This document shows positions 1,295-62,393 of a DNA stretch of 64,000 nucleotides, piece by piece. How positions within the stretch are numbered: the stretch's first letter is position 1; each line of letters begins with the position of its first letter. Location: sequence record OR352939.1; one strand, 5' to 3'. The notes under the pieces are model-generated. The model searched no databases. It was not told where the DNA came from and saw nothing but the letters and a program-made list of their open reading frames with translations. Both the position numbers and the translations under genes were made by a program. The stretch comes from Escherichia phage AV109.

Positions 1295-1312
1295 GGGAGA
1301 CCGAAGTCTCCC
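1295..1312 (-). terminator. intrinsic terminator hairpin GGGAGAC-UUCG-GUCUCCC followed by UUUUGUG
   Basis: perfect 7-bp stem with C(UUCG)G tetraloop on minus-strand RNA, U-tract 3' of stem, just after stop of 59-aa ORF. Confidence 0.65.
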
Positions 1313-1317
1313 TAAAA

Positions 1318-1497
1318 TTATGCAACAACCTTTCCAAAACGAGAAGCATCATCTCGAAGAACTGCACGTGCTCTGCGCATGATCTTCTCAACGGTTTGAT
1401 TAATACGAGAGTTCGACCCACGCTTGTATCCAGCGCGTTTAGAGGTACCATCAACTTTCTTTTCAACTGCTTTCTTTGCTTTAGCTTGTTTTGCCAT
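1318..1497 (-). CDS. small basic protein (59 aa), hypothetical; not in ORF track
   Basis: ATG 1497-1495 to TAA 1320-1318, translated by hand: MAKQAKAKKAVEKK...; followed by terminator hairpin. Confidence 0.4.
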   Translation of the reverse strand: MAKQAKAKKAVEKKVDGTSKRAGYKRGSNSRINQTVEKIMRRARAVLRDDASRFGKVVA

Positions 1498-1660
1498 TAT
1501 AAATTCTCTTTAAATGAAAATGCAGGACTTATTGACATTGCCTGCTCAAGCCCTCAATGGGAACATAGGTTTTGGATATTTAACGACAGGATAACCATAA
1601 ACCCGTCATCATACCTACCATGACTTACACAGCTAACCTTTTGCTGACGCATGATAGCAA

Positions 1661-1909
1661 TTATTTCAAAGTAATAACAAAATGACGTACTGCTTTACGA
1701 GCTGCAGAAGCCAAAGGCTTAGCATATTTCAGTTCATCTTTTGCTTCCAGTTCAGAAGCCAAAGCTGCCTGGACCGGGTTCAGATGTTTGAAATAACGCA
1801 AGATTTCCAGTGCTTCGGCTTCAACATCAATCGACGCGCCGTAGTTTTCATGACCATTATTCCATGCGTTTCGTTGCAGTTCAAGAGCGTGTTGTAATTG
1901 TTTAATCAT
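1661..1909 (-). CDS. rIII: rIII lysis-inhibition accessory protein (82 aa)
   Basis: size and position immediately downstream of gene 31 as in T4; sequence resembles remembered T4 rIII. Confidence 0.7.
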   Translation of the reverse strand: MIKQLQHALELQRNAWNNGHENYGASIDVEAEALEILRYFKHLNPVQAALASELEAKDELKYAKPLASAARKAVRHFVITLK

Positions 1910-2025
1910 TTTAAATTCTCAATTCGAGATAATATTTAGTAGCCACGTTCGTCTGAATTTCACCTTCTTTCGACAAGTCTCTCAGTTGTAGGCTACCGCT
2001 TAGAAGAGTGTTCTCTTCATATAGT

Positions 2026-2033
2026 TATTTATA
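2026..2033 (-). promoter_or_regulatory. late promoter motif TATAAATA upstream of rIII
   Basis: exact TATAAATA on minus strand directly after gene 31 stop. Confidence 0.35.
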
Positions 2034-2366
2034 TCACTTATAAAGACACGGAATAGCTTTATAGTGGCATGTTACGAATTTCTGTTTAATTTCTTTAGGT
2101 TGTTTAAGTCCCAAAGCCACAAATGGATGTGGAACATTTCGAATTTGTCCAACTGGTAGTGGAGTCAAATCACCGACTTCAACAAAACCTTCAGGAACAT
2201 CAGGACCTACAGAATGAACTACACATAGTTCAGGAACTTCACCTTGAACACGTTTACCAATCACAAGTCCTGATTCGGTAACTTCTTCATCACCTGCTTG
2301 AGCGGGTTCAGAAACCAGAATGACATATTCACCAACAGCACGAATTGGGAGTTGTACTTCAGACAT
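2034..2366 (-). CDS. 31: gp31 co-chaperonin (GroES analogue) for capsid protein folding
   Basis: near-identical to T4 gp31 ([34 protein letters not shown]...[11 protein letters not shown]). Confidence 0.92.
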
Positions 2367-2396
2367 CTTATTTCCTTGTTGTTTGACGATAGATTA

Positions 2397-2421
2397 ATAA
2401 TACCATACTATTCGTAAAGCA
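2397..2421 (-). promoter_or_regulatory. MotA-dependent middle promoter candidate (MotA box TGCTTTA, ~12 nt, TATTAT -10) for gene 31
   Basis: minus-strand ..atatGCTTTAcgaatagtatggTATTAT.. 30 nt upstream of gene 31 ATG. Confidence 0.4.
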
Positions 2422-2423
2422 TA

Positions 2424-2732
2424 TTACATAAGAAGCAAACGTTCTACCGGAGTACCATCAACCGAAATTACTTTATCAAGGCGGAAAGAACGCCACTGAC
2501 CTAACTCGGTATCGAATGCTCGAACTGATTCACGAGGTTCAGAACGAACTTCTGTTGATGGGTTACTATTTTCATATTTGACTTCAAGTTCGTCGCGGGA
2601 AGCAAACATCGTACGAACATCACCGTTAGCCTTTTCAAATACAACACAATGAACGCCTACAGACAGAATAGTTTTAATACATTCACGAAGAACCATAGTT
2701 TCTTGTTCAGTTAAAATCATATTATTCACCAC
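2424..2732 (-). CDS. hypothetical protein (102 aa)
   Basis: ORF between cd and 31. Confidence 0.45.
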   Translation of the reverse strand: MVNNMILTEQETMVLRECIKTILSVGVHCVVFEKANGDVRTMFASRDELEVKYENSNPSTEVRSEPRESVRAFDTELGQWRSFRLDKVISVDGTPVERLLLM

Positions 2733-3303
2733 AAAAGTTTCGAATTTGTTCCCAATTCAGAGAACGAAGATTATTACGAGAGTACTGAATTACTTCAATA
2801 CCGGCTTTTTTTAGAATGTCTGCCCAATTTTCAGGAGATCGGTCATATAATTCTGCATATACAACCTTTTTAATACCTGACTGTGTAATAGCTTTAGTGC
2901 AATCAGGACATGGAGAAAGCGTCGTATACAACGTAGCACCTTCAATAGAATTACCTTTACGAGCTGCAAACAAAATTGCATTCAATTCCGCATGGATTTC
3001 GTTATTAGCAGACCATGCACTATGAGCGGCCCGATGTTCTTTAGCCAAAACAAAATTATCCACCCGTCCAAATGCTGTAGTGCCTTCTTTATGCCCAGCA
3101 ACGATGACCGGGCTTGGTTTATTCTTCAACCAACCATTTTCGGATGCATGTTCGCAACAGTTTGTACCACCTGAAGGAGAGCCATTATAACCTGTAGAAA
3201 TAATGCGTCCATCTTTTTCAATGACGGCGCCAACTTTCCATGAACAACATTTTGATTCTTGAGAAATCAGATAAGCAATCTGAAGATATGTGCTAGCTTT
3301 CAT
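2722..3303 (-). CDS. cd: dCMP deaminase
   Basis: 193 aa; cytidine/dCMP deaminase zinc motifs HAELNAI and SPCPDC; T4 cd length and position. Confidence 0.9.
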   Translation of the reverse strand: MKASTYLQIAYLISQESKCCSWKVGAVIEKDGRIISTGYNGSPSGGTNCCEHASENGWLKNKPSPVIVAGHKEGTTAFGRVDNFVLAKEHRAAHSAWSANNEIHAELNAILFAARKGNSIEGATLYTTLSPCPDCTKAITQSGIKKVVYAELYDRSPENWADILKKAGIEVIQYSRNNLRSLNWEQIRNFCGE

Positions 3304-4295
3304 TATTGAACCTTATTAATATAAGTTAACAGCTCTTTAGTTTGTTCCCAACTGATGCACGCATCGGTAATGGAAACGCCATAGGACATATTATCAGAAA
3401 TTTTTTGATTTCCTTCATGTAGGAATGATTCTATCATAATTCCTTTGACCAAATCATTAGCTGCTAAATTTTTACCAATACCAATTTGATTGCTATAATG
3501 CCCATCAGCGTTTGCATGGCTACAGTCAACCATTACATAATGATTCAGACCTACTGCCCTTGCTTTGTTAGAAGCTTCTTGAATATCAGAAGAATGATAG
3601 TTCGGGCCGTTAGTCCCGCCACGCAATACGATATGCGTATTCTGATTACCTTCAGCTTCAACAATGCCTACAGTACCATCGACGTCCATACCCATATACC
3701 GATGAGGCCGCGCGGCACTATACATCGCGTCTGTAGCTACTTTAATAGAACCATTGGTTGCGTTCTTGAAGCCTACGCACATCGGTAGACCTGAAGCAAT
3801 TTCACGATGTGTCTGACTTTCAGTCGTACGGGCGCCAATAGCAACCCATGAGAAAATACCAGAAAGATACTTAATCGTGAATGGGTCTAATACTTCAGTT
3901 GCTAATGGAAGTCCCATACGTAGAAGTTTACGACACAATGTTCGTGCAACTATAAGACCGTGGTTCATATCAAAACTTCCGTCAAGATATGGATCATTTA
4001 CAAGACCTTTCCAACCTACGGTAGTTCGAGGCTTTTCAAAATAAACGCGCATCACTAACAGAACATTAGGAAGACGAGTTTGAAGTTCAGCCAGACGTTT
4101 GCCGTATTCAACAGCAGCAATAGGGTCATGAATTGAACAAGGACCTACAACAATAAGTTTGCGTGGGTCTTCACCGTTCATAATCGAATTAACTTGTTCG
4201 CGATGAGAAGCCACTTGTGATGCGTAAGCTTCCGACAAAGGAATAATCTCAGCCAGTTCTTTTGGAGAAATAAGTTTTCTGACGACAGGTAACAT
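3303..4295 (-). CDS. 3-deoxy-D-arabino-heptulosonate-7-phosphate (DAHP) synthase, class I alpha (AroG/AroF-like)
   Basis: 330 aa with hallmark blocks LIVVGPCSIHD, MRVYFEKPRTTVGWKGL, AIGARTTESQTHRE, CVGFKN, LRGG..PNY, GVSITDACI closely matching E. coli AroG; AAGGA SD before ATG 4295. Confidence 0.85.
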   Translation of the reverse strand: MLPVVRKLISPKELAEIIPLSEAYASQVASHREQVNSIMNGEDPRKLIVVGPCSIHDPIAAVEYGKRLAELQTRLPNVLLVMRVYFEKPRTTVGWKGLVNDPYLDGSFDMNHGLIVARTLCRKLLRMGLPLATEVLDPFTIKYLSGIFSWVAIGARTTESQTHREIASGLPMCVGFKNATNGSIKVATDAMYSAARPHRYMGMDVDGTVGIVEAEGNQNTHIVLRGGTNGPNYHSSDIQEASNKARAVGLNHYVMVDCSHANADGHYSNQIGIGKNLAANDLVKGIMIESFLHEGNQKISDNMSYGVSITDACISWEQTKELLTYINKVQ

Positions 4296-4415
4296 AACAA
4301 TCCTTAGGAGATATAAACAGATTCTGATTCAACAATACCTTTAACCGGATTAGACAGGCTAAGTTGGTAGTGCTCAGATTTATGACCATTCTCGATAGTA
4401 ATGAGATAGCTCTCA

Positions 4416-4652
4416 TTATAGTGTTCCATATACTCGAGTTGCTTCAACAAGACCATCACTGCCTAATTTAAGATTAGTAATTTGGTCACCATCTTTAGGA
4501 TTAACGATTATGAGAAAAGAACGTGGAGATTCTTGAATAACTCGTAATGTTGCATCCTGGAAACGTTCAGACACTTTATTGATGAGTGCTTGAGCAAATT
4601 CTTTTACTTTAATCTGAAATTCGTGTACTGTAATTGGATTTTCACTTAGCAT
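4416..4652 (-). CDS. hypothetical protein (78 aa)
   Basis: ORF with GAGGAAA SD; early promoter upstream. Confidence 0.45.
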   Translation of the reverse strand: MLSENPITVHEFQIKVKEFAQALINKVSERFQDATLRVIQESPRSFLIIVNPKDGDQITNLKLGSDGLVEATRVYGTL

Positions 4653-4678
4653 TTCGATTTCCTCATTTTGGTAGAGTC

Positions 4679-4708
4679 ATCATAACACAACTCTACAGTG
4701 TTGTAAAC
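4679..4708 (-). promoter_or_regulatory. T4-type early promoter (GTTTAC / TATGAT)
   Basis: minus-strand GTTTAC at 4708-4703, TATGAT at 4684-4679. Confidence 0.45.
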
Positions 4709-4984
4709 TTAAATTGCAAAACATTTAATTTCTTGTGAATCGAAATCAACTTCACACTGAATTACTAGATCAGCATCAAGTCCAAACACAACAATCACAT
4801 GAGCCGAGCTGGGCAACAACGTAACAGACACAGAATCCACTTGGTCAGGCACTAGTGTATTCAAAACGTAGAGTAGTTCAGAGTGGACCTTAAGCTCAGT
4901 AGCCGTATCCAGCTTATCAAAGAAATGATTTGCGATAATCTGACTAAAAACTACCTTTACAATTTCAGAATATTTAGGGAACAT
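4709..4984 (-). CDS. hypothetical protein (91 aa)
   Basis: ORF in cd-proximal array. Confidence 0.4.
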   Translation of the reverse strand: MFPKYSEIVKVVFSQIIANHFFDKLDTATELKVHSELLYVLNTLVPDQVDSVSVTLLPSSAHVIVVFGLDADLVIQCEVDFDSQEIKCFAI

Positions 4985-4991
4985 AATTACC

Positions 4992-5216
4992 TCAGTGCAC
5001 AGTATTTACTTTAACTCGAACAACAAATCGCTCGGTTGGTTCACCGACGGGAACAAACTCTACATGATATTCACCTTTGTAACGAGTATTCAGATCATTA
5101 CGAATTCCTGCGAGTTTGTTGATTAATGTAGGACTCATATTAAGTCCCACTAGTTTACGAAGCATTTTGTATGCTTCATCTTCGATTTCATGATGTTTAT
5201 CGTACATAGTTTTCAT
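4992..5216 (-). CDS. hypothetical protein (74 aa)
   Basis: ORF in array. Confidence 0.4.
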   Translation of the reverse strand: MKTMYDKHHEIEDEAYKMLRKLVGLNMSPTLINKLAGIRNDLNTRYKGEYHVEFVPVGEPTERFVVRVKVNTVH

Positions 5217-5387
5217 TTAACCATTCAATTGCCTGGTCGACGTTATCAAATATACCGCCGTCCAAACGTTCTTCACGCTCATAGTCCATCACATCAATAC
5301 CGAACTGTCCATTTACTAAAGGCCAGGCTACAAACAAATATTCTTTATGATGTTCGATGGCCTCAATCACTTCATATAATCGTTTCA

Positions 5388-5388
<1 letters not shown>
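5197..5388 (-). CDS. hypothetical protein (63 aa)
   Basis: ORF abutting pseT stop. Confidence 0.35.
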
Positions 5389-6474
<1,086 letters not shown>

Positions 6475-6475
<1 letters not shown>

Positions 6476-6774
6476 TATTTTATTCCTAAGAAAGTTTCAA
6501 GAATACGAATGTTATGCTCGCGCCGGTCTTTATTAATTTCAGCAACATTTTTATTAATTGACGTACTTCTAACGTTTGAAGAAATAAATTTAATCATATG
6601 ACTTTTGAGTTGTTGCAAATCCAACCCTTTTTCTTTAGCAGCTTTACGAAGAGCTTTACCTGCTTCATCTAGTGCCTTTGCTGCATCTTTGTCATAATCG
6701 ACAAGTGACATTCCACGGCAGATATCAATATACTCATCAGACCGTTTGATGTAATTCTCTAGTAATGTTTTCAT
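6475..6774 (-). CDS. hypothetical protein (99 aa)
   Basis: ORF with early promoter upstream. Confidence 0.45.
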
Positions 6775-6802
6775 TTAGATTTCCTCAATTATCCATAGGA
6801 GC

Positions 6803-6832
6803 ATTATACTCTGCTCCCGAGAGTTTGTAAAC
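6803..6832 (-). promoter_or_regulatory. T4-type early promoter (GTTTAC / TATAAT); near-duplicate of promoter at 38292-38321
   Basis: minus-strand GTTTACAAACTCTCGGGAGCAGAGTATAATGCTC. Confidence 0.55.
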
Positions 6833-7056
6833 TATTTTACTAAAGATTCAATATACTCATGAAGAGCTTTAGTAGCTACTGCCCACTTATTCTGATATTC
6901 ATTTTTCAGATTAGCACGAGACTGAACTAACAAGCGGTCATTAGTCGGAGGCAAAGATTCTAATCGTTGAATCTGGCGCCCATAAATCATAGCCGCCATT
7001 TCAGATTCATAGATAAGCCCTTTAATGTATTCATGCTGTTCTTTAGTCATTGGCAT
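6832..7056 (-). CDS. hypothetical protein (74 aa)
   Basis: ORF. Confidence 0.4.
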   Translation of the reverse strand: MPMTKEQHEYIKGLIYESEMAAMIYGRQIQRLESLPPTNDRLLVQSRANLKNEYQNKWAVATKALHEYIESLVK

Positions 7057-7337
7057 TTTTCCTCTTTTAAACCACTACGATAATAACATAACATAGTCTT
7101 CTGGTCATGTACATATCTTTTTATGTCGTTTAACCAGATACGAAATTCTTGAGAGTCTTCAAATGGCATTCCAACCCATGGATTACCATCAATAACCTTT
7201 ACTTGCCATTTCTGGTTATATTCGGAAATAGGCGTAGGCCATGAAGGATGTAAAGTTTCTTTAGGGCTTAAGGGCACATCCTGGGCACATCCAGCCAAAA
7301 TGCCAATAGATAATACAACTGCGGTTAATTTAATCAT
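7047..7337 (-). CDS. outer-membrane lipoprotein, probable o-spanin (T4 PseT.2-like)
   Basis: signal peptide with lipobox ILAGC; directly downstream of a TM plus coiled-coil ORF; matches T4 spanin position between alc and pseT. Confidence 0.6.
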   Translation of the reverse strand: MIKLTAVVLSIGILAGCAQDVPLSPKETLHPSWPTPISEYNQKWQVKVIDGNPWVGMPFEDSQEFRIWLNDIKRYVHDQKTMLCYYRSGLKEEKCQ

Positions 7338-7690
7338 TCTGAGAGCTTCCTGAGGTCTTCTGCAAAGGAATCGAAGGACCTGTTGATTTGTTTTTCGACC
7401 AATCCTGGCTTACTTGCCACCACGTTCTTCTTCTTCGAATCCTGACGGAGCTTTTCATTTTCGGCCTTAAGTTGGTCAACTAAAACACGGTTCTTATAAG
7501 TCATTTCTTCGATTGACTGATATTGAACCTTGAAGTCGTCTAATACTTTAGCATTGTTTTTAGCGGTCTCTTTGACAGAAGCTAATTCAGTATTCAGCGA
7601 ATCGACTTTATGGTTCAGAAATGCTATTGTTACAGTAGCAACAACTGCAAAAGCTGCCACTACAATATATGATGCATTTACTTTAAGCAT
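7334..7690 (-). CDS. N-terminal TM plus coiled-coil protein, probable i-spanin (T4 PseT.3-like)
   Basis: hydrophobic segment IVVAAFAVVATVTIAFL followed by charged helical region; overlaps start of lipoprotein ORF. Confidence 0.6.
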   Translation of the reverse strand: MLKVNASYIVVAAFAVVATVTIAFLNHKVDSLNTELASVKETAKNNAKVLDDFKVQYQSIEEMTYKNRVLVDQLKAENEKLRQDSKKKNVVASKPGLVEKQINRSFDSFAEDLRKLSE

Positions 7691-8178
7691 GTTTGAATAA
7701 TCTCAATGATTTCGTCTCGGGATAATCCATTGATAAGAACTGTTTTAGGCCCGTCAGTTTGGATTTTGTATGATTCAAACAATACACACAACTCTTCTGC
7801 TGTATGATATGGGCTTGAGATTCCGAGACGGTTAAATTTGTCGGTAAGAGGGTCGCAAATAATATAGAATTTGATACCTGCGATATGTACGTTTGGTTGA
7901 CTAATATTAATGAACACATTAGCGTCATATTTAGTCAAATTGTTTTGAAGAAATTCTACCATAGAATTAACTGCTTCTGGCATCGCTTCGCGTTTCTCTT
8001 CAGCGTATCGGGTTGAATACTCTTTTTGTTTTACTTTCTTTTTAAGATTTTTGGCCAGTGTAACACGTAGGTCAGTAAGATAACCAACTGGACGTCCTTT
8101 CTTAAAGACCCGGATTCCGTCAGTTGTGTCTCCAAAAGCGTTTACGACCATATCGTTAGTAATCAATTGCATATTCAT
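7678..8178 (-). CDS. alc: Alc-like protein (inhibitor of transcription from cytosine-containing DNA), 166 aa
   Basis: size and position between rnlA and pseT region as in T4; start placed at ATG 8178 (MNMQLI) preceded by AGGAGA SD, not the track start 8220 which lies in the promoter. Confidence 0.55.
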   Translation of the reverse strand: MNMQLITNDMVVNAFGDTTDGIRVFKKGRPVGYLTDLRVTLAKNLKKKVKQKEYSTRYAEEKREAMPEAVNSMVEFLQNNLTKYDANVFINISQPNVHIAGIKFYIICDPLTDKFNRLGISSPYHTAEELCVLFESYKIQTDGPKTVLINGLSRDEIIEIIQTCLK

Positions 8179-8207
8179 AATTTTCTCCTCGTGTTGTTGA
8201 TAAACCC

Positions 8208-8237
8208 ATAGTATCACCATCCTTGGTGTTTGTAAAC
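8208..8237 (-). promoter_or_regulatory. T4-type early promoter (GTTTAC / TACTAT)
   Basis: minus-strand GTTTACAAACACCAAGGATGGTGATACTAT upstream of alc. Confidence 0.5.
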
Positions 8238-8239
8238 CG

Positions 8240-9373
<1,134 letters not shown>

Positions 9374-9392
9374 TCAGTTAGTTTTTTTTTAA

Positions 9393-9422
9393 ATTGTACC
9401 ACAATCCTTGTGGTATGTAAAC
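9393..9422 (-). promoter_or_regulatory. T4-type early promoter (GTTTAC / TACAAT)
   Basis: minus-strand GTTTAC at 9422-9417 and TACAAT at 9398-9393 upstream of rnlA. Confidence 0.45.
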
Positions 9423-9832
9423 TACTTTTTCTTATGTTGGATATTCCAAGGCGGGTTGAACTTTTTGATAAAAAGTGGTTCTTCAAGGTCCATTGTTGCG
9501 ATGGTCATTGAACCAAGTTCGTTGGTGACTGAAAGGTCAAAACATTGGCGGGCCCAGAATTCAACCTTTTTGCCTTGCATTAAGGCATCCAAAATCATAA
9601 GTGATTTTCTTGAATCTGAAGTCTGGTCTTTTCGATTTATGGCTGTTCGATAATAGTTAATGCGTTTCTTTAAATTCTTGGTTTTACCAATATACACAAG
9701 TTCGTCATCTATAGCAATAGCATATATAACATTTTTCTTATTAGGGGCATCAATGGTTTTAATTGTTGCATCTTCTAATAGCTCCAATTCTATATATTTA
9801 ATAAAGGAATATTCGGCGGCAATATCTTTCAT
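9422..9832 (-). CDS. denA: endonuclease II (GIY-YIG family, host DNA degradation)
   Basis: 136 aa as in T4; GIY-YIG-like VYIGKT motif; position between nrdB and rnlA. Confidence 0.8.
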   Translation of the reverse strand: MKDIAAEYSFIKYIELELLEDATIKTIDAPNKKNVIYAIAIDDELVYIGKTKNLKKRINYYRTAINRKDQTSDSRKSLMILDALMQGKKVEFWARQCFDLSVTNELGSMTIATMDLEEPLFIKKFNPPWNIQHKKK

Positions 9833-9840
9833 AATAAAGT

Positions 9841-9854
9841 GGGACCGAAGTCCC
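9841..9854 (-). other. UUCG-tetraloop hairpin (GGGAC-UUCG-GUCCC) between nrdB stop and denA start
   Basis: 5-bp GC stem with C(UUCG)G loop, 8 nt upstream of denA ATG; no clean U-tract. Confidence 0.45.
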
Positions 9855-9858
9855 GTCC

Positions 9859-10361
9859 TTAGAAATATTTTTTGTATGAATTGATTACATTTTGGTCTAC
9901 ATCATTATCAATTTGTGCGACAAGATAAGAACTGATTTCAACTTCCTGAGGAGCTGCTTGAACTAAATCAGAGTTCAGATATTCACGAATCCAAGGATAA
10001 GGATGTTTGGTCGGAGCATCAGTAATTGGACACGGCAAACCACACTGTTTCATACGAGACACAGTCAAGTAATCAACAAAAGCACACATACTCTGTGTAT
10101 TGATACCTGGACATGTACCGTCTTTAAAGAGGTGTGCAGCCCATTCCTTCTCTTGACTATTTACTTCCATAAAAATGTCAACTGCTTCTTGTTCACATTC
10201 TTTAGCAATTTGAACCCACTCATCACCATCAGTACCGGATTGAAGTTGACGGATAATGTACTGAGTACCCTTGAGATGGAGTTGTTCGTCACGAGCAATG
10301 AACTTCATAATCTTTGCATTGCCTTCCATAATTTCCATATTCTTATGGAAATTAAATGTAC
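9859..10361 (-). CDS. nrdB: ribonucleotide reductase small subunit NrdB, exon 2
   Basis: encodes ..CTFNFHKNMEIMEGNAKIMKFIARDEQLH.. C-terminal half; joins exon 1 in frame to give a 392-aa product. Confidence 0.75.
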
Positions 10362-10953
10362 CGTTATGTTCGATTGAGCTCGCTAATTCTCAACCCGTTC
10401 TCTTATGAACTGCTGCATATTACTATGCAGACCAGACTATATCACAATCCCGGAGGGATTCTCCCCATTTCGAGTCGCTTGACCCTACGTCCGAAGACTA
10501 GTCGTTGAACCTTGCTTTGCAATTGTCGCCGTGCCATCGTTTATATGTCGATGGTGATAAATCTTTCTTTTCACAATATGGACAATTCAATTGAATTCTA
10601 TTTGGATTTAATTTGCATCTGTCATTATGTTTTAGATAAAACCCAGGACCTTTACCAATGTGACCGCAGAAATCACATGTGATTTCTTTTTGTGCAGGAT
10701 GGGTTCCGTTCTTAACCATTTCTAATGTTTTTGCTGATGTTCTTCCATCAGAATCTTTAGGTATAGGCCCGTTAGCATCCATCCAAATTTTTCTATAATT
10801 CAATTGTGCATCCTCTTAAAAGTATAATCATATTTATTTTATAATATACTAATTAAAGGTGCAAGCAAAACCTTGGCTGCTAGTTTTCCTATAAAGGACT
10901 TTCCAGCAATTAAAGGAGTTTTCGATAAACGTTACCGTTTAAAGGCGCATTTT
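10362..10953 (-). ncRNA. group I self-splicing intron in nrdB (approx. boundaries)
   Basis: exon 1 frame hits a stop immediately after conserved YVSFA; exon 2 resumes conserved NrdB sequence ~590 nt downstream; proposed splice sites follow exon-U / intron-G rule and restore frame; T4 nrdB has a similar intron. Confidence 0.65.
10498..10803 (-). CDS. intron-encoded endonuclease I-TevIII-like ORF (101 aa, probably truncated)
   Basis: ORF inside nrdB intron with Cys/His zinc-finger-like motifs (CDFCGH, CPYCEK); short compared with full-length I-TevIII of RB3. Confidence 0.55.
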   Translation of the reverse strand: MNYRKIWMDANGPIPKDSDGRTSAKTLEMVKNGTHPAQKEITCDFCGHIGKGPGFYLKHNDRCKLNPNRIQLNCPYCEKKDLSPSTYKRWHGDNCKARFND

Positions 10954-11629
10954 ACGCAAAAGATACATAAAAACGAATAGCTTCCAATGCATTGATGACA
11001 TGCAAACAAAGATAAAGAGATTTCATTAGGTCTCGTTTAGCTTCGGTCTCTTGTTTAATAGCTCGGTTTAAACGAAGGTCGGCATCAGGAGATTCTTTAG
11101 CTTGTTCTACAAATTCTTTAGCATTTTCCCAATTACGAGTCTTGACTAGAACATCATCATAATATTTACCTATTGATTCAGCTCGTTTCATGATTGCTTC
11201 GTCTAATACAATCTCATCAAATACTTTGGATGGATCGGTATAAAGATTTCGCATAATATGAGTATACGAACGAGAGTGAATAGTTTCACTGAATGTCCAT
11301 GTTGCAACCCACGTATCTAATGAAGGGTCGGAAAGCAGTGCCATAAGTACCGCAGATGGGGCCCTGCCTTGGATAGAATCTAATAATGATTGATACTTAA
11401 GGTTGTTTGTAAAGATGTCCTGTTGGAACTGAGGAAGCTTATTGAACTGGGCCGAATCCAGCATCAGGTTTACTTCTTCTGGTCGCCAGAAAAACGACAA
11501 TTGCTTTTCAATAAGTTCTTCAAAAACTTTATGTCGCTGAATATCATAACGTGCGAGGCCAAGACCAGAACCAAAGAACATTGGTTCATTCAAAACATCG
11601 ACTTGTTGTGTGTTAAAAACTGTACTCAT
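10954..11629 (-). CDS. nrdB: ribonucleotide reductase small subunit NrdB, exon 1
   Basis: N-terminal 225 aa ending ..EAIRFYVSFA, matching class Ia R2. Confidence 0.8.
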
Positions 11630-11684
11630 TATATTTTCTCACTTAGTTATTAACTCATCCATGAGTAAATTATAATCAAAAGTC

Positions 11685-13949
11685 TTAAAGCTTACAAGCA
11701 GAACAATCTTCAGCTTTAGGTGTTTCTAATTCATAGTCATCTGTACCTGACCCATCACGAGTGTTATGATAGTAGAGGTTTTTTCCGCCAAAGTACCAGA
11801 AGTAAAGCAGATCGTCAAGCATTACTGACATTGGCACTTTACCTTTCTCAAATACTGCAGGGTCATAGTAAGTATTAGCAGAAGCAGATTGGCACACCCA
11901 TTTCAACATGATAGCAACTTGGGTCAAATAAGGTTTATTACCTTTCTTAGCAAGTTTCCACGCGTAGTCGTAAAGACTCATGTTATGTTCTATATTAGGA
12001 ACAACCTGTCGGAAGTTGCCTTCTTTAGATTCTTTAATACTTACAGGTCCACGAGGTGGTTCTATACCATTTGTGCTATTTGAGACTTGACTGCTTGACT
12101 CACAAGGCATGAGTGCAGACAACGTTGAGTTACGAATTCCATGTTCTTTGAGTTCAGCTCGAAGTTCTTCCCAGTCACAGACATAGTTCGGGGCTGCGAT
12201 TTGGTCAATCTTTTTATTGTACCAGTCGATAGGTAATTCGCCTCTAGACCATTTAGTGTCTGAATAATACTCACAAGGTCCTTTTTCTTTGGCGAGTTTG
12301 ATTGATGCTTTGATAAGGCCATATTGCAATCTCTCGAACAATTCATGGGTCAAATCGTTAGCGTCTTCATATGAAGCAAAGTTAGAAGCTAACCATGCAG
12401 CATAGTTCGTCACACCAACACCGAGATTTCGACGCTTTTTAGCTTTTAAAGCTTCTGGAACCGGATAATCTTGATAGTCTAACAGGTTATCAAGTGCACG
12501 TACTTGTACTTCAGCAAGTTCATTAATTTTATCTTGGTCTTGCCAATCAAATTTATCTAATACAAAAGCAGATAATGTGCATAAACCAATTTCAGCATCA
12601 GGACCATTCACATCATTAGTTGGAATAGCGATTTCACAACATAAGTTACTCTGACGAATTGGAGCTTTTTCACGAATAAACGGAGTGTAGTTATTCGTGT
12701 TATCAACAAACTGTGGATAAATTCGAGCAGTGCCAGAACGTTCAGTCATGAACAATTCAAAGAGTTCTAGTGCTTTGATTCTTTTCTTTCTGATTGTTGG
12801 GTCTTTTTCAGCTTTCTCATAAAGCTCACGGAATTTATCTTGATCTTCAAAGAACGAGTAGTATAGTTCACCTGACATTTCGTGAGGGCTAAATAAAGTA
12901 ATATAATCATTTTTACCAAGGCGTTCCATCATAAGGTCATTAATCTGAATTCCGTAGTCCATATGTCGAATACGGTTTTCATCCACGCCTTTGTTATTTT
13001 TCAGAACTAATAGGTTCTCTACTTCTAAGTGCCACATCGGATAATACGCTGTAGCAGCACCACCACGAATACCACCTTGAGAACAAGATTTTACTGCAGT
13101 TTGGAAATGTTTCCAGAATGGAATAACACCCGTATGTCGGACTTCACCCATACCGATCTTAGAACCTTCTGCACGAAGCATACCAACGTTGATACCGATA
13201 CCAGCTCGTTTAGAAATATATTCAATAATTGATGCTGAAGTTTTGTTAATAGATTTTAACGAATCACCGGCTTCAATAACTACACAACTAGAGAACTGGC
13301 GAGTCGGAGTGCGAGCACCTGCCATAATTGGAGTAGGCAATGAAACTTGATGAGTAGAAACGGCATCATAAAAACGAATAATATGTTTCAAACGGTCATG
13401 AGTTTCGTCTTGATGTAAGGCCATACCAATAGCCATGATAGCAAACTGTGGAGTTTCATAAATCTTCCCAGTTGTTTTATCTTTAACCAAGTATTTTTCT
13501 TTAAGCTGCATAGCACCAGCATAAGTCAGGTCAAAGTCTCGTTCATGTTTAATCTGTGAATCGAGATAAATGATTTCTTCTGCTGAATATTTAGACAACA
13601 ACTCAGGGTCATATTTGCCTTCATTAACACAGTAAGAAATATGGTCGATAAAAGCAGGCGGTTCAAACTGCCCATATACATCTTTACGAAGTGCAAACAT
13701 TAGCCCTTTGGCGGCGACATACTGATAATCGGGTTCTTCGACAGAAATCAAGTTAGCTGCAACTTTAATACAAATCTTCTGAATATCTTTGGTGCTCATC
13801 CCATCAACCAGATGAGTCTTAATTTCTTCATACAATTCGTATGGGTCGATTTGTGTTCCTTCACACTGCCAAGTTAATACTTGAATAATTTTCTGTGCAT
13901 CAAAATTTTGGGATACACCTGAATTTTTCACTACTTTAAAATTATACAT
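11685..13949 (-). CDS. nrdA: ribonucleotide reductase large subunit NrdA
   Basis: 754 aa, near-identical to remembered T4 NrdA, ends ..DCSACKL. Confidence 0.95.
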   Translation of the reverse strand: MYNFKVVKNSGVSQNFDAQKIIQVLTWQCEGTQIDPYELYEEIKTHLVDGMSTKDIQKICIKVAANLISVEEPDYQYVAAKGLMFALRKDVYGQFEPPAFIDHISYCVNEGKYDPELLSKYSAEEIIYLDSQIKHERDFDLTYAGAMQLKEKYLVKDKTTGKIYETPQFAIMAIGMALHQDETHDRLKHIIRFYDAVSTHQVSLPTPIMAGARTPTRQFSSCVVIEAGDSLKSINKTSASIIEYISKRAGIGINVGMLRAEGSKIGMGEVRHTGVIPFWKHFQTAVKSCSQGGIRGGAATAYYPMWHLEVENLLVLKNNKGVDENRIRHMDYGIQINDLMMERLGKNDYITLFSPHEMSGELYYSFFEDQDKFRELYEKAEKDPTIRKKRIKALELFELFMTERSGTARIYPQFVDNTNNYTPFIREKAPIRQSNLCCEIAIPTNDVNGPDAEIGLCTLSAFVLDKFDWQDQDKINELAEVQVRALDNLLDYQDYPVPEALKAKKRRNLGVGVTNYAAWLASNFASYEDANDLTHELFERLQYGLIKASIKLAKEKGPCEYYSDTKWSRGELPIDWYNKKIDQIAAPNYVCDWEELRAELKEHGIRNSTLSALMPCESSSQVSNSTNGIEPPRGPVSIKESKEGNFRQVVPNIEHNMSLYDYAWKLAKKGNKPYLTQVAIMLKWVCQSASANTYYDPAVFEKGKVPMSVMLDDLLYFWYFGGKNLYYHNTRDGSGTDDYELETPKAEDCSACKL

Positions 13950-14589
13950 AATAATTCCATGTTGGATAATTTGATGATTTTAGACGGCGTCTAACCGTTT
14001 GGGTGCTCATAGATAAAATTATTGACGCTTCATTTAATGTATCATATATTACGTCGTTTATAATTACTTTCTTTGCAAATGGATTCTTAGCTCCTATCAT
14101 AGCGTTAGAAATAGCTTGCTTAGTTGATTCTTTTAATGGGACTCCTTTAGAAATTTTTGTTTTAATTTTTATATTGTATTGTCCGCGTTTTTTACCTAAT
14201 AAAGAATTTCGTATCTTTTCTTTAGTCTCTTCAGATTTAACATGTCCTAGTTTGGAACGAGATATTTTATCTTTTGTTTTTTGGTCTAATTTTCGCCCTT
14301 TAAGCAAATCAACCATTTTTGCTCTAGCCCATCCAAATTCTTTATTATTTCTAGAACTCATTAAATTAACCGCGGTTGCTAAACCTAAATTGTTCGGATA
14401 TATTTTTAATAAAAGAAGATGAGCCAAATAATGTTCTGAATATGTTAATTTAACTAGATTGTATGACTCATTGGTGCCACCTAAACATTTTGGGATTATA
14501 TGATGCCATTCACCATCGATATCTTCAAAATTTCTTTCTTTATTTACTAAGTTTTTATATATTTTTAAATAATCCATAGTATAATCCAC
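13942..14589 (-). CDS. HNH homing endonuclease (Mob-like) with NUMOD repeats and C-terminal HTH
   Basis: HNH block WHHIIPKCLGGTNESYNLVKLT..EHYLAH; freestanding between td-side ORF and nrdA. Confidence 0.75.
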   Translation of the reverse strand: MDYTMDYLKIYKNLVNKERNFEDIDGEWHHIIPKCLGGTNESYNLVKLTYSEHYLAHLLLLKIYPNNLGLATAVNLMSSRNNKEFGWARAKMVDLLKGRKLDQKTKDKISRSKLGHVKSEETKEKIRNSLLGKKRGQYNIKIKTKISKGVPLKESTKQAISNAMIGAKNPFAKKVIINDVIYDTLNEASIILSMSTQTVRRRLKSSNYPTWNYYV

Positions 14590-14653
14590 TTTGTAGTATC
14601 AACGGGATAGTATTTATCCCGTTAATTTTATTATACACTTTTAAACTGAAGCG

Positions 14654-14908
14654 TTAATTATCCTCAGCAATAATTTCTTCGTATTCTTTAGGTGTCAAGA
14701 CCGTGATATTGAAATAAACCAACGGTTCTTTTTCCACACCGTAACCACCACAGAATTCACGATATTCATAAATTCGTTCATGTGAATAACAAATGAATCG
14801 TTCACCTTTAACTATGATTTCACTATTCGGTGAAGGGATATCTAGTTCGGTAGGATTTTTCATTTCAAAAATTGTGGTGCCATATGAATTAATAAAACGT
14901 AAAATCAT
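14654..14908 (-). CDS. hypothetical protein (84 aa)
   Basis: ORF between td and HNH gene. Confidence 0.4.
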   Translation of the reverse strand: MILRFINSYGTTIFEMKNPTELDIPSPNSEIIVKGERFICYSHERIYEYREFCGGYGVEKEPLVYFNITVLTPKEYEEIIAEDN

Positions 14909-14909
14909 T

Positions 14910-15221
14910 TTATACCGCCATTTTAGCTTTGATAGCTGGATGTGATTCGTAATTTTTAAGAACGAAATCAGAATGTGTCATCGTTCCGGTAACCCAGTCC
15001 ATTTGGATTTTTGTAGGCCAATTCTCAAAATTACTAGGCCAATTAATTTCAAGAGAACATAACTCTTTAGGTTCACGACGAAGAACTTCTTTGCATTGTT
15101 CTACATGATTGCTGTAGATATGCGTGTTGCCGCCTGAGAACACTAAATCACCTGGGATAAGGTTACACATCTTCGCTACAATATGTGTCAAGGCAGCGTA
15201 CGAGGCGATGTTGAACGGTAG
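14910..15221 (-). CDS. td: thymidylate synthase, exon 2
   Basis: encodes LPFNIASYA..HIVAKMCNLIPGD..SGGNTHIY..; exon 2 begins one codon after the intron-terminal G of AUG, as in T4. Confidence 0.9.
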   Translation of the reverse strand, partial: LPFNIASYAALTHIVAKMCNLIPGDLVFSGGNTHIYSNHVEQCKEVLRREPKELCSLEINWPSNFENWPTKIQMDWVTGTMTHSDFVLKNYESHPAIKAKMAV

Positions 15222-15368
15222 CATTATGTTCAGATAAGGTCGTTAATCTTATCCCGGAATTATATCCAGCTGCATGTCACCATGCAGAGCAGACTATATC
15301 TCCAACTTGTTAAAGCAAGTTGTCTATCGTTTCGAGTCACTTGACCCTACTCCCTAAAGGGATAGTCG

Positions 15369-16112: not shown

Positions 16113-16129
16113 CTCTTTTTATATAGAAG

Positions 16130-16137
16130 TATTTATT
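16130..16137 (-). promoter_or_regulatory. variant late-promoter-like motif (AATAAATA) upstream of I-TevI
   Basis: 7/8 match to TATAAATA on minus strand inside the td intron. Confidence 0.25.
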
Positions 16138-16237
16138 AAAGGGTAGTCCTACAATTTAGCACGGGATTGTCTACTAGAGAGGTCCCCCGTTTAGATAGAT
16201 TACAAGTATAAGTCACCTTATACCTAGGCCTAAATTA

Positions 16238-17370: not shown

Positions 17371-17373
17371 TTT

Positions 17374-18077: not shown

Positions 18078-18106
18078 TTTGATTTCCTCATGTTGTTGAT
18101 AGGTCT

Positions 18107-47823: not shown

Positions 47824-47856
47824 AAAGGTATTCTATCATCCGAAATCTAAAGCAAA

Positions 47857-47872
47857 AAGGGCCGAAGCCCTT
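47857..47872 (-). terminator. hairpin AAGGGC-UUCG-GCCCUU + UUUUG overlapping stop of upstream ORF
   Basis: 6-bp stem, UUCG loop, U-tract. Confidence 0.5.
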
Positions 47873-50650: not shown

Positions 50651-50680
50651 ATTTTTTCTCTCTTTGTTTAAATTGAATTC

Positions 50681-50710
50681 ATTATACTCCATCCATCCTT
50701 GGATGTACAA
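50681..50710 (-). promoter_or_regulatory. T4-type early promoter (TTGTAC / TATAAT) with duplicated CCAAGGATGG spacer motif
   Basis: minus-strand TTTACAACCAAGGATGG..TGTACATCCAAGGATGGAGTATAAT. Confidence 0.45.
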
Positions 50711-50742
50711 CATCTCCAACCATCCTTGGTTGTAAACTGGTT

Positions 50743-51420
50743 TTATCGCTGTTTTACACTTAACGGGTCAGGATTCTCAGGTACATCTTCAAGGCCAAGC
50801 GCATAACGCTGAGCATATTTTAACATCAAAATATCTTTAGCACAATCATGAATACTATCATGGGTAACGAATCCTTTTAGCGTACCCATCGGTAATGGAC
50901 ACATACTTAATCCTCGTGTCAACGAGTAAGCTTCGATTGCTGTACGAATATCGCGTTGTGCCCAGAATTTAACCGGTTCTAATTTATCGGTATCAATCTC
51001 TGGTTCAAGAACACCTTCATCACGATAGAGGTCACGAATCAAATCGACCAATATCGGGAAGTCAAAGCTCATACCACGGCACCACATCTGTGATTTCCAT
51101 TGGTCAACTTTATTAGCTCGGCAATAGTCTAAAAAGATTTTAATGCCTTCAAGCGTAGTGACATCGTCTTCAGACGGAGCCAAGTTTTTACGCGCTTCAG
51201 CCGATTGTTCTTTCCACCATTTCATAGTTGATTTAGCGAAAACTCGCTTCCCTTTCTGAGAAGCTAAATTAAATTTAATTCGCTTACCTCGTTGAACAAG
51301 TTCTTCAAATGATTCAACAACTTCAGGGTCGGAATTATATGCAATAACCGCAAGGTCAATAACAGCCGCTTTTGATGTATTGCCGAATGTTTCAAAATCT
51401 ATAATAACATCAGTGCTCAT
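50743..51420 (-). CDS. dexA: exonuclease A (DnaQ-like 3'-5' exonuclease)
   Basis: 225 aa; N-terminal IIDFETFG exonuclease motif; position downstream of dda as in T4. Confidence 0.85.
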   Translation of the reverse strand: MSTDVIIDFETFGNTSKAAVIDLAVIAYNSDPEVVESFEELVQRGKRIKFNLASQKGKRVFAKSTMKWWKEQSAEARKNLAPSEDDVTTLEGIKIFLDYCRANKVDQWKSQMWCRGMSFDFPILVDLIRDLYRDEGVLEPEIDTDKLEPVKFWAQRDIRTAIEAYSLTRGLSMCPLPMGTLKGFVTHDSIHDCAKDILMLKYAQRYALGLEDVPENPDPLSVKQR

Positions 51421-56708: not shown

Positions 56709-56738
56709 ATCTTAACACAGTTTTTAGTGGTTGTAAAC
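56709..56738 (-). promoter_or_regulatory. T4-type early promoter (GTTTAC / TAAGAT)
   Basis: minus-strand GTTTAC 56738-56733; weak -10. Confidence 0.4.
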
Positions 56739-56752: not shown

Positions 56753-56774
56753 AAGGAATCCCGAAGGATTCCTT
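56753..56774 (-). terminator. intrinsic terminator hairpin AAGGAAUCC-UUCG-GGAUUCCUU + U7 after soc
   Basis: 9-bp stem, UUCG loop, long U-tract immediately downstream of soc stop. Confidence 0.7.
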
Positions 56775-60935: not shown

Positions 60936-61304
60936 TTAATTAAATTTGTTTAAACGTTCAATACACTGGACGTAGTTATTCGCGATTTGTTTCTGGGTAG
61001 GCTCTTTACCAGTTGTTTCAACATAGCGAATGAATGCGATTTCAGTAGCCTGTAAGCAATGTTCTTTAACGCGCTGTTCTTTTGACATAGCTACAGTATC
61101 AGAATCACGATAACGTTGAGCATGGGCATCAGCTTGAATCATTCGATTACCTACAGTAACCGGGTCTTCCACTTCAACTTTAGGTTGGTCGTACTGTTTA
61201 ACATTCGGATTGTAAATCAATTGGCCGACGTTATTAGGGATAAAGCCATGGGCACCACATCCGGTTAATCCAAATACCATTGCTAAAGCGATTAATTTTT
61301 TCAT
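60936..61304 (-). CDS. lipoprotein (122 aa)
   Basis: signal peptide with lipobox LTGC. Confidence 0.55.
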   Translation of the reverse strand: MKKLIALAMVFGLTGCGAHGFIPNNVGQLIYNPNVKQYDQPKVEVEDPVTVGNRMIQADAHAQRYRDSDTVAMSKEQRVKEHCLQATEIAFIRYVETTGKEPTQKQIANNYVQCIERLNKFN

Positions 61305-61332
61305 TTCAATTTCCTCTGTAGTTGATAGAAAG

Positions 61333-61362
61333 ATAGTAACACAGTATGTGGTGCTTGTAAAC
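61333..61362 (-). promoter_or_regulatory. T4-type early promoter (GTTTAC / TACTAT)
   Basis: minus-strand GTTTAC 61362-61357, TACTAT 61338-61333. Confidence 0.5.
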
Positions 61363-61375
61363 AGTTATTTTAAAA

Positions 61376-61564
61376 TTATCGAAAATCTGCTTCGAAAACT
61401 TTCTCGTCATTAACAAATGCTTTAACTAATGCTTTGTTCACTTCAGCAAGTTGTACCGTAACCCACTCGATTTCTTCGCGATCACCTGATAACATGATAT
61501 CTTTAGTGAACATCTCACCGCTTTTAAACCAACCGATAAAAGTAACTTTAGTTAATTTGCTCAT
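61376..61564 (-). CDS. hypothetical protein (62 aa from ATG 61564)
   Basis: ATGA overlap with upstream stop; track start 61585 overlaps upstream ORF. Confidence 0.35.
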   Translation of the reverse strand: MSKLTKVTFIGWFKSGEMFTKDIMLSGDREEIEWVTVQLAEVNKALVKAFVNDEKVFEADFR

Positions 61565-61878
61565 ATTTCCTCGCAAAATGCCCATTCAGCGTGATAAACT
61601 GTAGCGCCTTTAGTATCATTCATTTGAACTACATCTACCGGAGAAATTACTCGATAGAGACGTGGTTCACCTCCATAAGAGCGTGCTGCTCGTCCTGCAT
61701 AAATCTTTGCTAAACCGATATCTTCAGTAAAGAATACACGATCCAAGTTTTTCTTACGTCCAGTTTCAGACAGAACTCCTGTTTCTTCAGGAGGACAAAG
61801 CATGTTTTCGATGTTAGCTGAACTACTTGAACCGTGATAAAAAATCTTAAATTCTGCTTTACAATCGATGGTTTTCAT
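61561..61878 (-). CDS. hypothetical protein (105 aa)
   Basis: ORF with early promoter upstream. Confidence 0.45.
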   Translation of the reverse strand: MKTIDCKAEFKIFYHGSSSSANIENMLCPPEETGVLSETGRKKNLDRVFFTEDIGLAKIYAGRAARSYGGEPRLYRVISPVDVVQMNDTKGATVYHAEWAFCEEI

Positions 61879-61904
61879 TTTGTTCTCCAGTAGTTGATAG
61901 GTCT

Positions 61905-61933
61905 ATAATAACACAACTACTGGAGAAGTAAAC
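61905..61933 (-). promoter_or_regulatory. T4-type early promoter (GTTTAC / TATTAT)
   Basis: minus-strand GTTTAC 61933-61928, TATTAT 61910-61905, AGACCTATCAACT leader. Confidence 0.5.
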
Positions 61934-62308
61934 TTAAAAACGTAATTTAGATATATCTGCGTTGATTTCGTTTTGGTTTGCGTCGTATGCAATTAAACGA
62001 ACCGCTTTAGATGGGTCATTCAATGCATAGAAATGATGGAACATTGCTCGAACGATATCACCATTTACGAGTTCTACCTGGATAGGAGAACCTTTTTCGA
62101 GTTGGAAATGTTCATAAGCTTTGATGGTTCGTAGATAATCAAGTTTTTGATTTCCGGCTCCAACTATTTGTACGATACGTTTGCCCATGTTTTCCATACG
62201 AGATACAATAGTTTTAGGAGCAAGAATAACGTAGGTTGCCAGCGGAGAAACTACTTCAACAGTTGTGTTTTCGGTGATTGCAGTAAAAATTGCTTGAGAC
62301 ATATTCAT
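61934..62308 (-). CDS. hypothetical protein (124 aa)
   Basis: ORF with AAGAGGAAAA SD; first gene downstream of 41. Confidence 0.5.
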   Translation of the reverse strand: MNMSQAIFTAITENTTVEVVSPLATYVILAPKTIVSRMENMGKRIVQIVGAGNQKLDYLRTIKAYEHFQLEKGSPIQVELVNGDIVRAMFHHFYALNDPSKAVRLIAYDANQNEINADISKLRF

Positions 62309-62337
62309 AATGTTTTCCTCTTGGTTGGTGTAAGTAC

Positions 62338-62367
62338 ATCATATCATGCCTAGAGGAAGATGTAAAC
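62338..62367 (-). promoter_or_regulatory. T4-type early promoter (GTTTAC / TATGAT)
   Basis: minus-strand GTTTAC 62367-62362, TATGAT 62343-62338. Confidence 0.45.
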
Positions 62368-62371
62368 CCCG

Positions 62372-62393
62372 AAAGGAGACCGAAGTCTCCTTT
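62372..62393 (-). terminator. hairpin AAAGGAGAC-UUCG-GUCUCCUUU after gene 41
   Basis: 9-bp stem with UUCG loop 3 nt after gene 41 stop; variant of the repeated GGGAGACCGAAGTCTCCC element. Confidence 0.5.

Follow-up and report, generated by a model that had tools for sequence, protein, structure and literature searches.

Hairpins with C(UUCG)G loops at gene ends of a Mosigvirus as probable RNA-level terminator and mRNA-end elements

A 64,000-nucleotide stretch of the genome of Escherichia phage AV109 (OR352939.1), referred to below as the window, contains 13 hairpins in which a GC-rich stem is capped by a UUCG loop closed by a C-G pair. These hairpins very probably act at the RNA level, as terminator or mRNA-end elements of a T4-like phage, in line with the first-pass annotation of the window, which had described them as intrinsic terminators or mRNA 3′-end stabilizers. 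This view fits the strand on which the loop is found, the compensatory changes in the stems, the U-tracts and the position of the hairpins after stop codons. It is also the published view for T4-like phages (PMC4371310, PMC2988022, PMC1524935), and agrees with the annotation of phage SA79RD (OL960576.1), which is ~95% identical to the window. A whole-window alignment matched Escherichia phage AV114 (OR352944.1; Straboviridae, Tevenvirinae, Mosigvirus) at 99.9% over AV114 positions 32001-96000, with 28 mismatches and 13 gaps, and a 3-kb piece of the window matched AV114 at 100%.

The exact 18-mer GGGAGACCGAAGTCTCCC occurs at 1295, 18167 and 27165, as had been reported, and gave no matches in shuffled sequence. 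A fourth near-copy at 62374 contains two mismatches, which are compensatory and keep the pairing. All eleven sites listed earlier carry the hairpins described, while a systematic scan added two further members, at 799-814 and 37561-37586, bringing the C(UUCG)G family to 13. Hairpins with a TTCG or CGAA loop and at least five Watson-Crick pairs numbered 13 in the window against a mean of 0.69 in 200 dinucleotide-preserving shuffles (maximum 5), a count that takes in 25519-25532, where the C-G closing pair is lacking, and omits 39908, and thus differs from the 13-member family. TTCG/CGAA was by far the commonest loop among the GC-rich tetraloop stems of the window. Calculations with ViennaRNA, the fold-energy check proposed for these elements, showed that all 13 members fold as predicted, with model energies of -5.0 to -15.9 kcal/mol. 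Twelve are intergenic or overlap a stop codon, and most start 1-7 nt past one. The sense RNA displays UUCG closed by C-G in 12 of the 13, where the first-pass annotation had spoken of nearly all. The exception is 27165, where transcription follows the + strand and the RNA loop is CGAA.

As the stems are palindromic, only the loop reveals which strand matters. In the complete AV114 genome UUCG is on the strand of the adjacent genes in 20 of 21 CUUCGG hairpins (binomial p = 2e-5). A set of 80 gene-32 loci (277 kb), drawn from diverse T4-like viral contigs, held 46 sense CUUCGG hairpins and no antisense examples, and TTCG accounted for 44 of the 70 GC-rich tetraloops, CGAA for none. Such a preference for the sense strand speaks for an element working at the level of the transcript. 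A hairpin lies after gene 32 in at least 40 of 44 T4-like loci, with differing stems, and a strong hairpin is found no more than ~25 nt from the gene 32 stop in nearly all loci, down to ~37% gp32 identity. The stems at this site vary (GGGAGAC, AGAAGGAGCC, AAGGGGACC, AAAGGCUACUC, AAAGGGGUGAC and others) and are followed by a U-tract, while the loops are mainly UUCG, with some UCCG, UACG, UUUG, GAAA and the T4-type CUAGA. The best-hairpin score at the gene 32 site had a median of 23.5; control windows taken from these loci gave 12, with a 95th percentile of 19. Among 18 distinct gene 32 sequences, both sides had changed at six of the seven pairs and the closing C-G was present in 17. The 35/36 junction exhibits the same pattern across relatives, with the late promoter TATAAATA afterwards. 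T4 also has hairpins at the orthologous 30.9, soc, 37/38, rIIB, upstream-of-39 and 30.7/30.6 junctions; these were found by our own scan of the T4 sequence, as the T4 RefSeq record has no terminator features annotated. In the GenBank record of SA79RD, rho-independent terminators (WebGeSTer, TransTermHP) are placed at nine orthologous sites, corresponding to 799, 1294, 18167, 27165, 36039, 37566, 44511, 56753 and 62372. An Rfam scan of the entire window at gathering thresholds returned no matches, leaving the hairpins unhit and the presumed td and nrdB introns likewise unflagged.

The variability of the stems also bears on whether the hairpins serve as RNA operators bound by proteins or as targets of a nuclease such as RegB, a reading that is highly improbable. 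GGAG is present in the 5′ arm of the hairpins at 799, 1294, 18167, 27165, 36039, 37566 and 62372, and RegB cleaves GGAG in intergenic parts of early mRNAs (PMC3014915). The stems, however, covary freely at orthologous sites, many are without GGAG, secondary structure shields the motif from RegB (PMC3014915) and proteins are reported not to bind the UUCG tetraloop (PMC4371310). RegB targeting itself was rejected, both on account of this structural protection and because the strong-site consensus GGAGRAYARAA is absent (PMC3014915).

A U-tract directly follows the hairpins at 1294, 18167, 27165, 36039, 39908, 47857 and 56753 (7/13), and is missing or weak at 799, 9841, 31668, 44511, 62372 and 37566; the U-tract regarded as usual in the first-pass annotation therefore describes some seven members and not the remainder. 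The early promoter said to come next was present after five hairpins (1294, 18167, 36039, 56753 and 62372), in the T4-type form GTTTAC-N16/17-TAnnAT with an AT-rich region upstream. Elsewhere it is replaced by a MotA-box middle promoter (after 47857), the late promoter TATAAATA (after 27165) or, in several cases, the ribosome-binding site of the next gene. That site and the start codon lie within 8-25 nt of the hairpin at 799, 9841, 31668 and 44511. At 39908 a U-tract is present, yet the ribosome-binding site and start of the next gene follow almost immediately.

These features suggest how the hairpins may work. Just past the stop codon the mRNA would fold into a stem rich in GC, with the exceptionally stable C(UUCG)G tetraloop at its tip. 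Those with a direct U-tract are most likely rho-independent terminators or attenuators that end or damp the upstream unit, and an RNA ending at such a site would gain a 3′ hairpin that resists 3′-5′ exonucleases. Those without a U-tract (799, 9841, 31668, 44511 and, partly, 62372) are most likely intercistronic folding or stability elements in polycistronic mRNA. The terminator-promoter modules (five early, one middle and one late) would insulate adjoining transcription units. Sequence, strand bias, covariation, U-tracts, promoter matches and conservation are what the analysis shows directly, and termination and stabilization are what we infer.

The hairpins resemble the rho-independent terminators described for T4-like phages. 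In T4 these are GC-rich stems with a loop of 4 nt and a poly(U) run (PMC2988022); the stem and loop recur throughout the window family and the U-run in about half of it, and the gene 32 and 35/36 sites are also conserved. In the T4-like genomes, including RB69, analysed by Nolan et al. 2006 (PMC1524935), a terminator was predicted at the 35/36 junction in all six and after gene 32 in five of the six. In contrast to such terminators, about five window members are without a U-tract and lead at once into a ribosome-binding site, for which a stability hairpin is the better fit. The UUCG tetraloop was first found in T4 mRNA, and published melting and nuclear magnetic resonance work underlies the claim of its special stability (PMC4371310).

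Several observations weigh against an interpretation of the hairpins as terminators or mRNA-end elements. A literature search found no 3′-end data for this phage or its relatives. A proper U-tract is missing from five or six of the 13 members, and ‘terminator' thus cannot cover the whole family. A simple terminator scan of positions 1-20000 identified 13 sites compared with 11.3 in shuffles, showing no enrichment; the scan is too permissive to discriminate. The hairpins used to assess covariation at gene 32 were chosen by a hairpin finder, so their 100% pairing is partly by construction. Finally, with the same stem ViennaRNA gave -12.0 kcal/mol for a UUCG loop and -12.2 kcal/mol for UUUU. As nearest-neighbour energies do not favour UUCG, its special stability rests on published experiments and not on this calculation, and fold energy alone cannot account for the loop preference.

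With respect to the T4 C(UUCG)G hairpins, those of the window have the same loop and closing pair and a similar intercistronic position in T4-type mRNAs, and the 30.9, soc, 37/38, rIIB and upstream-of-39 junctions are common to both. They differ in stem sequence, and the window contains one copy with an inverted loop. In addition, T4 has the loop CUAGA after gene 32 and CGAG or GA (depending on the fold) at motA, whereas the window has UUCG at both. The T4 CUUCGG hairpins have been known since 1988, the primary reference being Tuerk et al. 1988 (PNAS 85:1364).

The window has the gene order of T4. The − strand encodes the 30.x genes, rIII, 31, cd, pseT, alc, rnlA, denA, nrdB, nrdA and td, followed by frd, 32, 59, 33 and rnh; the + strand encodes genes 34-38 and then t; and the − strand is used again for asiA, motA, 52, ndd, denB, rIIB, rIIA, 39 and dexA, and then for dda, modA/B, soc, 56, 61 and 41. 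The hairpins at 27165 and 31668 are on the + strand, and the other eleven, like the five early promoters, on the − strand.

By their sequence, the composites of a terminator with an early or middle promoter match the published architecture of promoter-early stem-loop (PeSL) cassettes (Arbiol et al. 2010, PMC2839356; Comeau et al. 2014, PMC4122927) and of promoter-middle stem-loops (PmSL). The order stem-loop, AT-rich region, GTTTAC-N17-TAnnAT, ribosome-binding site and ATG is observed at 1294, 18167, 36039, 56753 and 62372, and the MotA-box version, equivalent to a PmSL, at 47857. PeSLs have been published for RB49/phi1, PST/T4 and nt-1/KVP40, but not for Mosigvirus, the genus of the window. 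Stem-loops from RB49 PeSLs terminated transcription in lacZ reporter fusions (PMC2839356). Unlike PeSLs, several window hairpins (gene 32, 35/36 and gene 41) are located in core regions with no indel nearby.

At the first of these sites the 18-mer is extended by an A-U pair into a terminator-like hairpin (1294-1313, -13.6 kcal/mol), which begins 4 nt past the stop of a 30.9-like gene and runs on into UUUGUGCGUUU; the orthologous T4 junction (30.9) also has a UUCG hairpin. With the early promoter GTTTACT-N16-TACTAT downstream (1230-1258), it makes up a PeSL-like module. The gene 32 terminator, GGGAGAC-UUCG-GUCUCCC (18167-18184, -12.0 kcal/mol), lies 6 nt past the gene stop, has a UUUUG tail and is followed by the early promoter GTTTACT-N16-TAGTAT (18107-18135). 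Between gene 52 and motA the terminator-like hairpin AGGGAGC-UUCG-GCUCCCU (36039-36056, -12.4 kcal/mol) has the tail UUUGUGCAUUUUU; T4 has a hairpin with another loop at this junction. The motA early promoter, GTTTACA-N16-TATTAT (35986-36014), lies within an 86-nt stretch at 35938-36023. The soc terminator, AAGGAAUCC-UUCG-GGAUUCCUU with the tail UUUUUGUUU (56753-56774, -12.2 kcal/mol), is followed by an early promoter match at 56709-56738, and its stem differs between T4 and the window by a single compensatory pair, C-G to A-U. The hairpin AAAGGAGAC-UUCG-GUCUCCUUU (62372-62393, -12.1 kcal/mol) starts 3 nt past the gene 41 stop, has a weak U-tract and is followed by an early promoter match at 62338-62367. 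The middle-promoter module comprises AAGGGC-UUCG-GCCCUU (47857-47872, -8.8 kcal/mol), which overlaps the stop of the open reading frame (ORF) at 47871-48293 and has a tail, UUUGCUUUA, that continues into the MotA-box promoter (47830-47854). Upstream of gene 39 T4 has AAAGGCC-UUCG-GGCCUUU, then GCUUUA. In T4, ~40 nt are identical between 21805-21960 (after the gene 32 terminator) and 38605-38740 (upstream of motA), spanning the U-tract, the AT-rich region and GTTTACA, which indicates that T4 too repeats whole terminator-promoter modules.

Among the hairpins that lead directly into the next gene, GGAGGC-UUCG-GCCUCC (799-814, -10.8 kcal/mol), one of the two absent from the earlier list, lies between a 30.7-like ORF (823-1188) and the ORF at 497-784. 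It lacks a U-tract and is followed by UUGAGGAAAAUAUUAUG, which comprises a ribosome-binding site and start; the orthologous T4 30.7/30.6 junction carries GAGGGGC-UUCA-GCCCCUU. A short 5-bp C(UUCG)G hairpin (9841-9854, -7.5 kcal/mol) separates the nrdB stop (9859) from the denA start (9832); it has no proper U-tract and is identical in SA79RD, where it is not annotated as a terminator. The hairpin after gene 37 (31668-31685, + strand, -12.4 kcal/mol) begins 1 nt past the stop and is followed by AAGGAUUUUUAAUG, containing the ribosome-binding site and start of gene 38; the T4 37/38 junction has AGAGGGGC-UUCG-GCCCUUCU. AAGCUCC-UUCG-GGAGCUU (44511-44528, -10.0 kcal/mol) overlaps the stop of a homing-endonuclease ORF and precedes CAUUUUAAUUUU and the ribosome-binding site of the next gene, while its SA79RD orthologue is an annotated terminator directly after gene 39. 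The rIIB hairpin (39908-39923, -5.0 kcal/mol), 5 nt past the rIIB stop and followed by UUUUUUCUUU, is imperfect, comprising four pairs, a mismatch and one pair. Its stem is weakened by one G-to-T substitution (G-to-U in the RNA), which breaks a pair compared with AV114 and SA79RD, both of which have the perfect 6-bp GGGGAC-UUCG-GUCCCC. T4 has an imperfect CUUCGG hairpin at rIIB.

The second hairpin missing from the earlier list differs in being intragenic. Its core, GGAGCC-UUCG-GGCUCU (37566-37581), is extended by G-U pairs to 37561-37586 (-15.9 kcal/mol) and lies 21-36 nt inside the 5′ coding part of ORF 52.1, a conserved ORF of 46 amino acids. These codons also form a hairpin in T4, the covarying GGGCUA-UUCAU-UAGCCC, and in SA79RD the orthologous site is annotated as a terminator with a middle promoter downstream. 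The hairpin is probably an intragenic attenuator, which may lie ahead of a middle promoter for gene 52; T4 provides a precedent, with terminators inside the 5′ coding portions of mobE and segF (PMC2988022). The window contains another hairpin within a coding sequence, a perfect 9-bp GC-rich stem with a different loop, AUAGCGGGC-UCUU-GCCCGCUAU, at 26119-26140 in the 5′ part of gene 35.

The 35/36 terminator (27165-27182, + strand, -11.1 kcal/mol) has the same DNA 18-mer as 1295 and 18167, but its sense strand reads GGGAGAC-CGAA-GUCUCCC, the sole exception to the sense-strand rule. Its tail is AUUUUUG, and the late promoter TATAAATA follows at 27190-27197. In SA79RD, in L210 (the closest metagenomic relative) and in L231 and L233, both distant phages, the sense strand at this junction reads GGGAGAC-TTCG-GTCTCCC. 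The window flanks are common to SA79RD and L210, whereas L231 and L233 resemble the window only in the short tail and late promoter. The inverted-loop version is found in 5 of 121 matching phage records, AV115, AV118 and G2285 being listed at 100%, while 58 of the 121 fall in the 95-99% identity band, and those listed there match at 95.6%, corresponding to exactly four loop mismatches. The 27165 hairpin is a derived inversion of the 4-nt loop within an unchanged palindrome, most likely caused by template switching or recombination between the arms. As the stem and U-tract are kept, the inversion probably costs little.

The identity of the three 18-mers might suggest that they are recent duplicates of one element, spread through ectopic gene conversion or by behaving as a small mobile repeat, and not terminators maintained independently. 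Consistent with this, hairpins are more alike between sites within a genome than between orthologous sites across genomes: in the window GGGAGAC is used at 30.9, gene 32 and 35/36 and nearly so at gene 41, while T4 has AAGGACUCC at soc and 30.9 and AAAGGCC at two other sites. In absolute DNA terms the 27165 copy is also oriented like those at 1295 and 18167, even though its gene is on the opposite strand. Against this, the same 18-mer is present at both the gene 32 and 35/36 sites of distant phages (L023, L024, L231 and L233) whose gp32 and gp36 are 65% and 41-43% identical, respectively, to those of the window; at such divergence the shared sequence must be either old or convergent, and not the product of recent duplication. 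Outside the stem the flanks have nothing in common but the generic U-tract and the promoter consensus, and the 18-mers have no terminal repeats or target duplications. A recent common origin of the three copies is thus quite unlikely. A mobile short repeat of the REP/MITE type was rejected, as the flanks beyond the stem are unconserved and the positions are orthologous across genera.

The exact 18-mer also occurs in at least 120 unrelated IMG/VR stretches, from contigs of varying size and, among the matches listed, with a GC content of 30-63%, while an arm-swapped control of identical composition, GTCTCCC-TTCG-GGGAGAC, was present in only five. The possibility that copies are common in unrelated sequence at chance frequency was raised in the first-pass annotation; they are indeed common in unrelated phages, yet well beyond what the control would predict, which argues for selection for this particular hairpin. 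In 122 copies the mean number of T in the 8 nt that follow the UUCG strand is 6.1, compared with 3.3 on the other strand, and at positions 2-6 of this tract 78-89% of the copies listed carry T. These data indicate that the 18-mer is a favoured generic terminator design, in which the 5′ arm has a run of G and the 3′ arm, beside the U-tract, a run of C. A further proposal is that T4-like terminator hairpins evolve in concert, one stem (GGGAGAC/GUCUCCC) being kept or re-copied at unlinked sites, with the 27165 inversion as a trace of the process. We view this as doubtful; if true, ectopic conversion or hairpin-templated switching would provide a route.

The first-pass annotation also suggested that the identical copies could act as recombination hotspots bounding exchangeable cassettes, to be checked against breakpoints in related genomes; in a wider form, the hairpins, above all the 18-mers, would be mainly DNA-level recombination sites. 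The window and SA79RD differ at 11 structural positions, two of which are insertions of an intron and homing endonuclease (nrdB and td). Of the nine non-intron differences, five begin or end no more than ~110 nt from a UUCG hairpin, a proximity that gives modest support (p ~0.02) in a rough binomial test assuming that 20% of gene junctions are hairpin junctions. The five comprise an ORF replaced in SA79RD (498-777, adjoining 799), a 30.8-like ORF (ORF215) present in SA79RD (1184-1258, adjoining 1294), the additional ORF264 of SA79RD between gene 52 and motA (35938-36023, adjoining 36039), the homing-endonuclease gene of the window (44539-45332, adjoining 44511) and an extra window ORF lacking in SA79RD (47148-47821, 36 nt downstream of 47857). 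Indels thus cluster by hairpin-promoter modules, and the PeSL papers propose a recombination or cassette role (PMC2839356, PMC4122927).

The crossovers, however, map to the promoter and leader. In SA79RD ORF264 is flanked by an 86-nt duplicate (35348-35433 and 35669-35754) that is present as a single copy in the window (35938-36023). Base-level alignment showed that this repeat, downstream of the hairpin, extends from the -35 region through the motA leader to the first three codons, ATGTCTAAA, and its second copy (copy B) is preceded by another stem-loop. Likewise, the 75 nt of the window at 1184-1258 match two places in SA79RD that flank ORF215, as judged from overlapping BLAST matches only. 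ORF264 is a clear case of a PeSL-type insertion or deletion, and the window resembles PeSLs in that ORF indels adjoin the modules with crossovers between the -35 region and the start codon; crossover zones of PeSL mini-circles were mapped likewise (PMC2839356). The 18-mers at 18167 and 27165, by contrast, lie without a breakpoint in uninterrupted homology to SA79RD and to the Tequatrovirus PaulHMueller, and the ends of a 17.7-kb block shared with the latter (10737 and 28425) are not at hairpins. A deletion between 18-mers would take out essential genes, intergenic regions tolerate indels anyway, and a strict sense-strand loop bias is not expected of a DNA site. The hairpins are therefore unlikely to be mainly recombination sites. 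The duplicated homology in promoter and leader, together with the absence of breakpoints at the 18-mers, indicates that the cassette idea is supported only in part, holding for whole modules and not for the 18-mers.

Other features of the window relate to genome exchange. The 17.7-kb block (10737-28425), which runs from nrdB/nrdA through gene 36 into the beginning of gene 37, shares 91-97% identity with PaulHMueller, compared with ~67-83% for most segments outside it, the other exception being a short 92% stretch at 1330-1660. The block looks like an inter-genus exchange. The homing-endonuclease gene at 44539-45332 sits between gene 39 and its terminator hairpin. Identity to SA79RD, ~95% elsewhere, drops to 80% in the adjacent gene 39 (45333-47147), the pattern that a co-conversion tract would produce. 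At 50670-50750 (− strand) two near-identical units of ~27 nt, CAACCAAGGAUGGUUGGAG and CAUCCAAGGAUGGAUGGAG, lie between GTTTAC and TATAAT; at this point SA79RD carries an additional ORF-bearing segment of 530 bp. The two units may be a deletion scar between repeated ribosome-binding-site regions. Both nrdB (10362-10955) and td (15222-16238) are interrupted by homing-endonuclease ORF insertions, presumably group I introns, that are lacking in SA79RD.

The hairpins are real and statistically well supported, but they represent a textbook feature of T4-type phages, in which such elements are already known as conserved terminators and as parts of terminator-promoter cassettes. The UUCG tetraloop was first found in these hairpins, and the family carries little weight as a discovery. 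Its value lies in annotation: in this Mosigvirus the 13 sites serve as markers of where transcription units end, and those at 799 and in ORF 52.1 had been overlooked. A detail is also added to the cassette-shuffling model, in that crossovers here fall in promoter and leader repeats, not in the stem-loops. The inverted loop at 35/36 is a minor curiosity, illustrating that the loop of a palindromic terminator can be turned around while everything else stays as it was. Along with the use of one stem at several sites, this inversion is a small matter for which a comparative study might be worthwhile.

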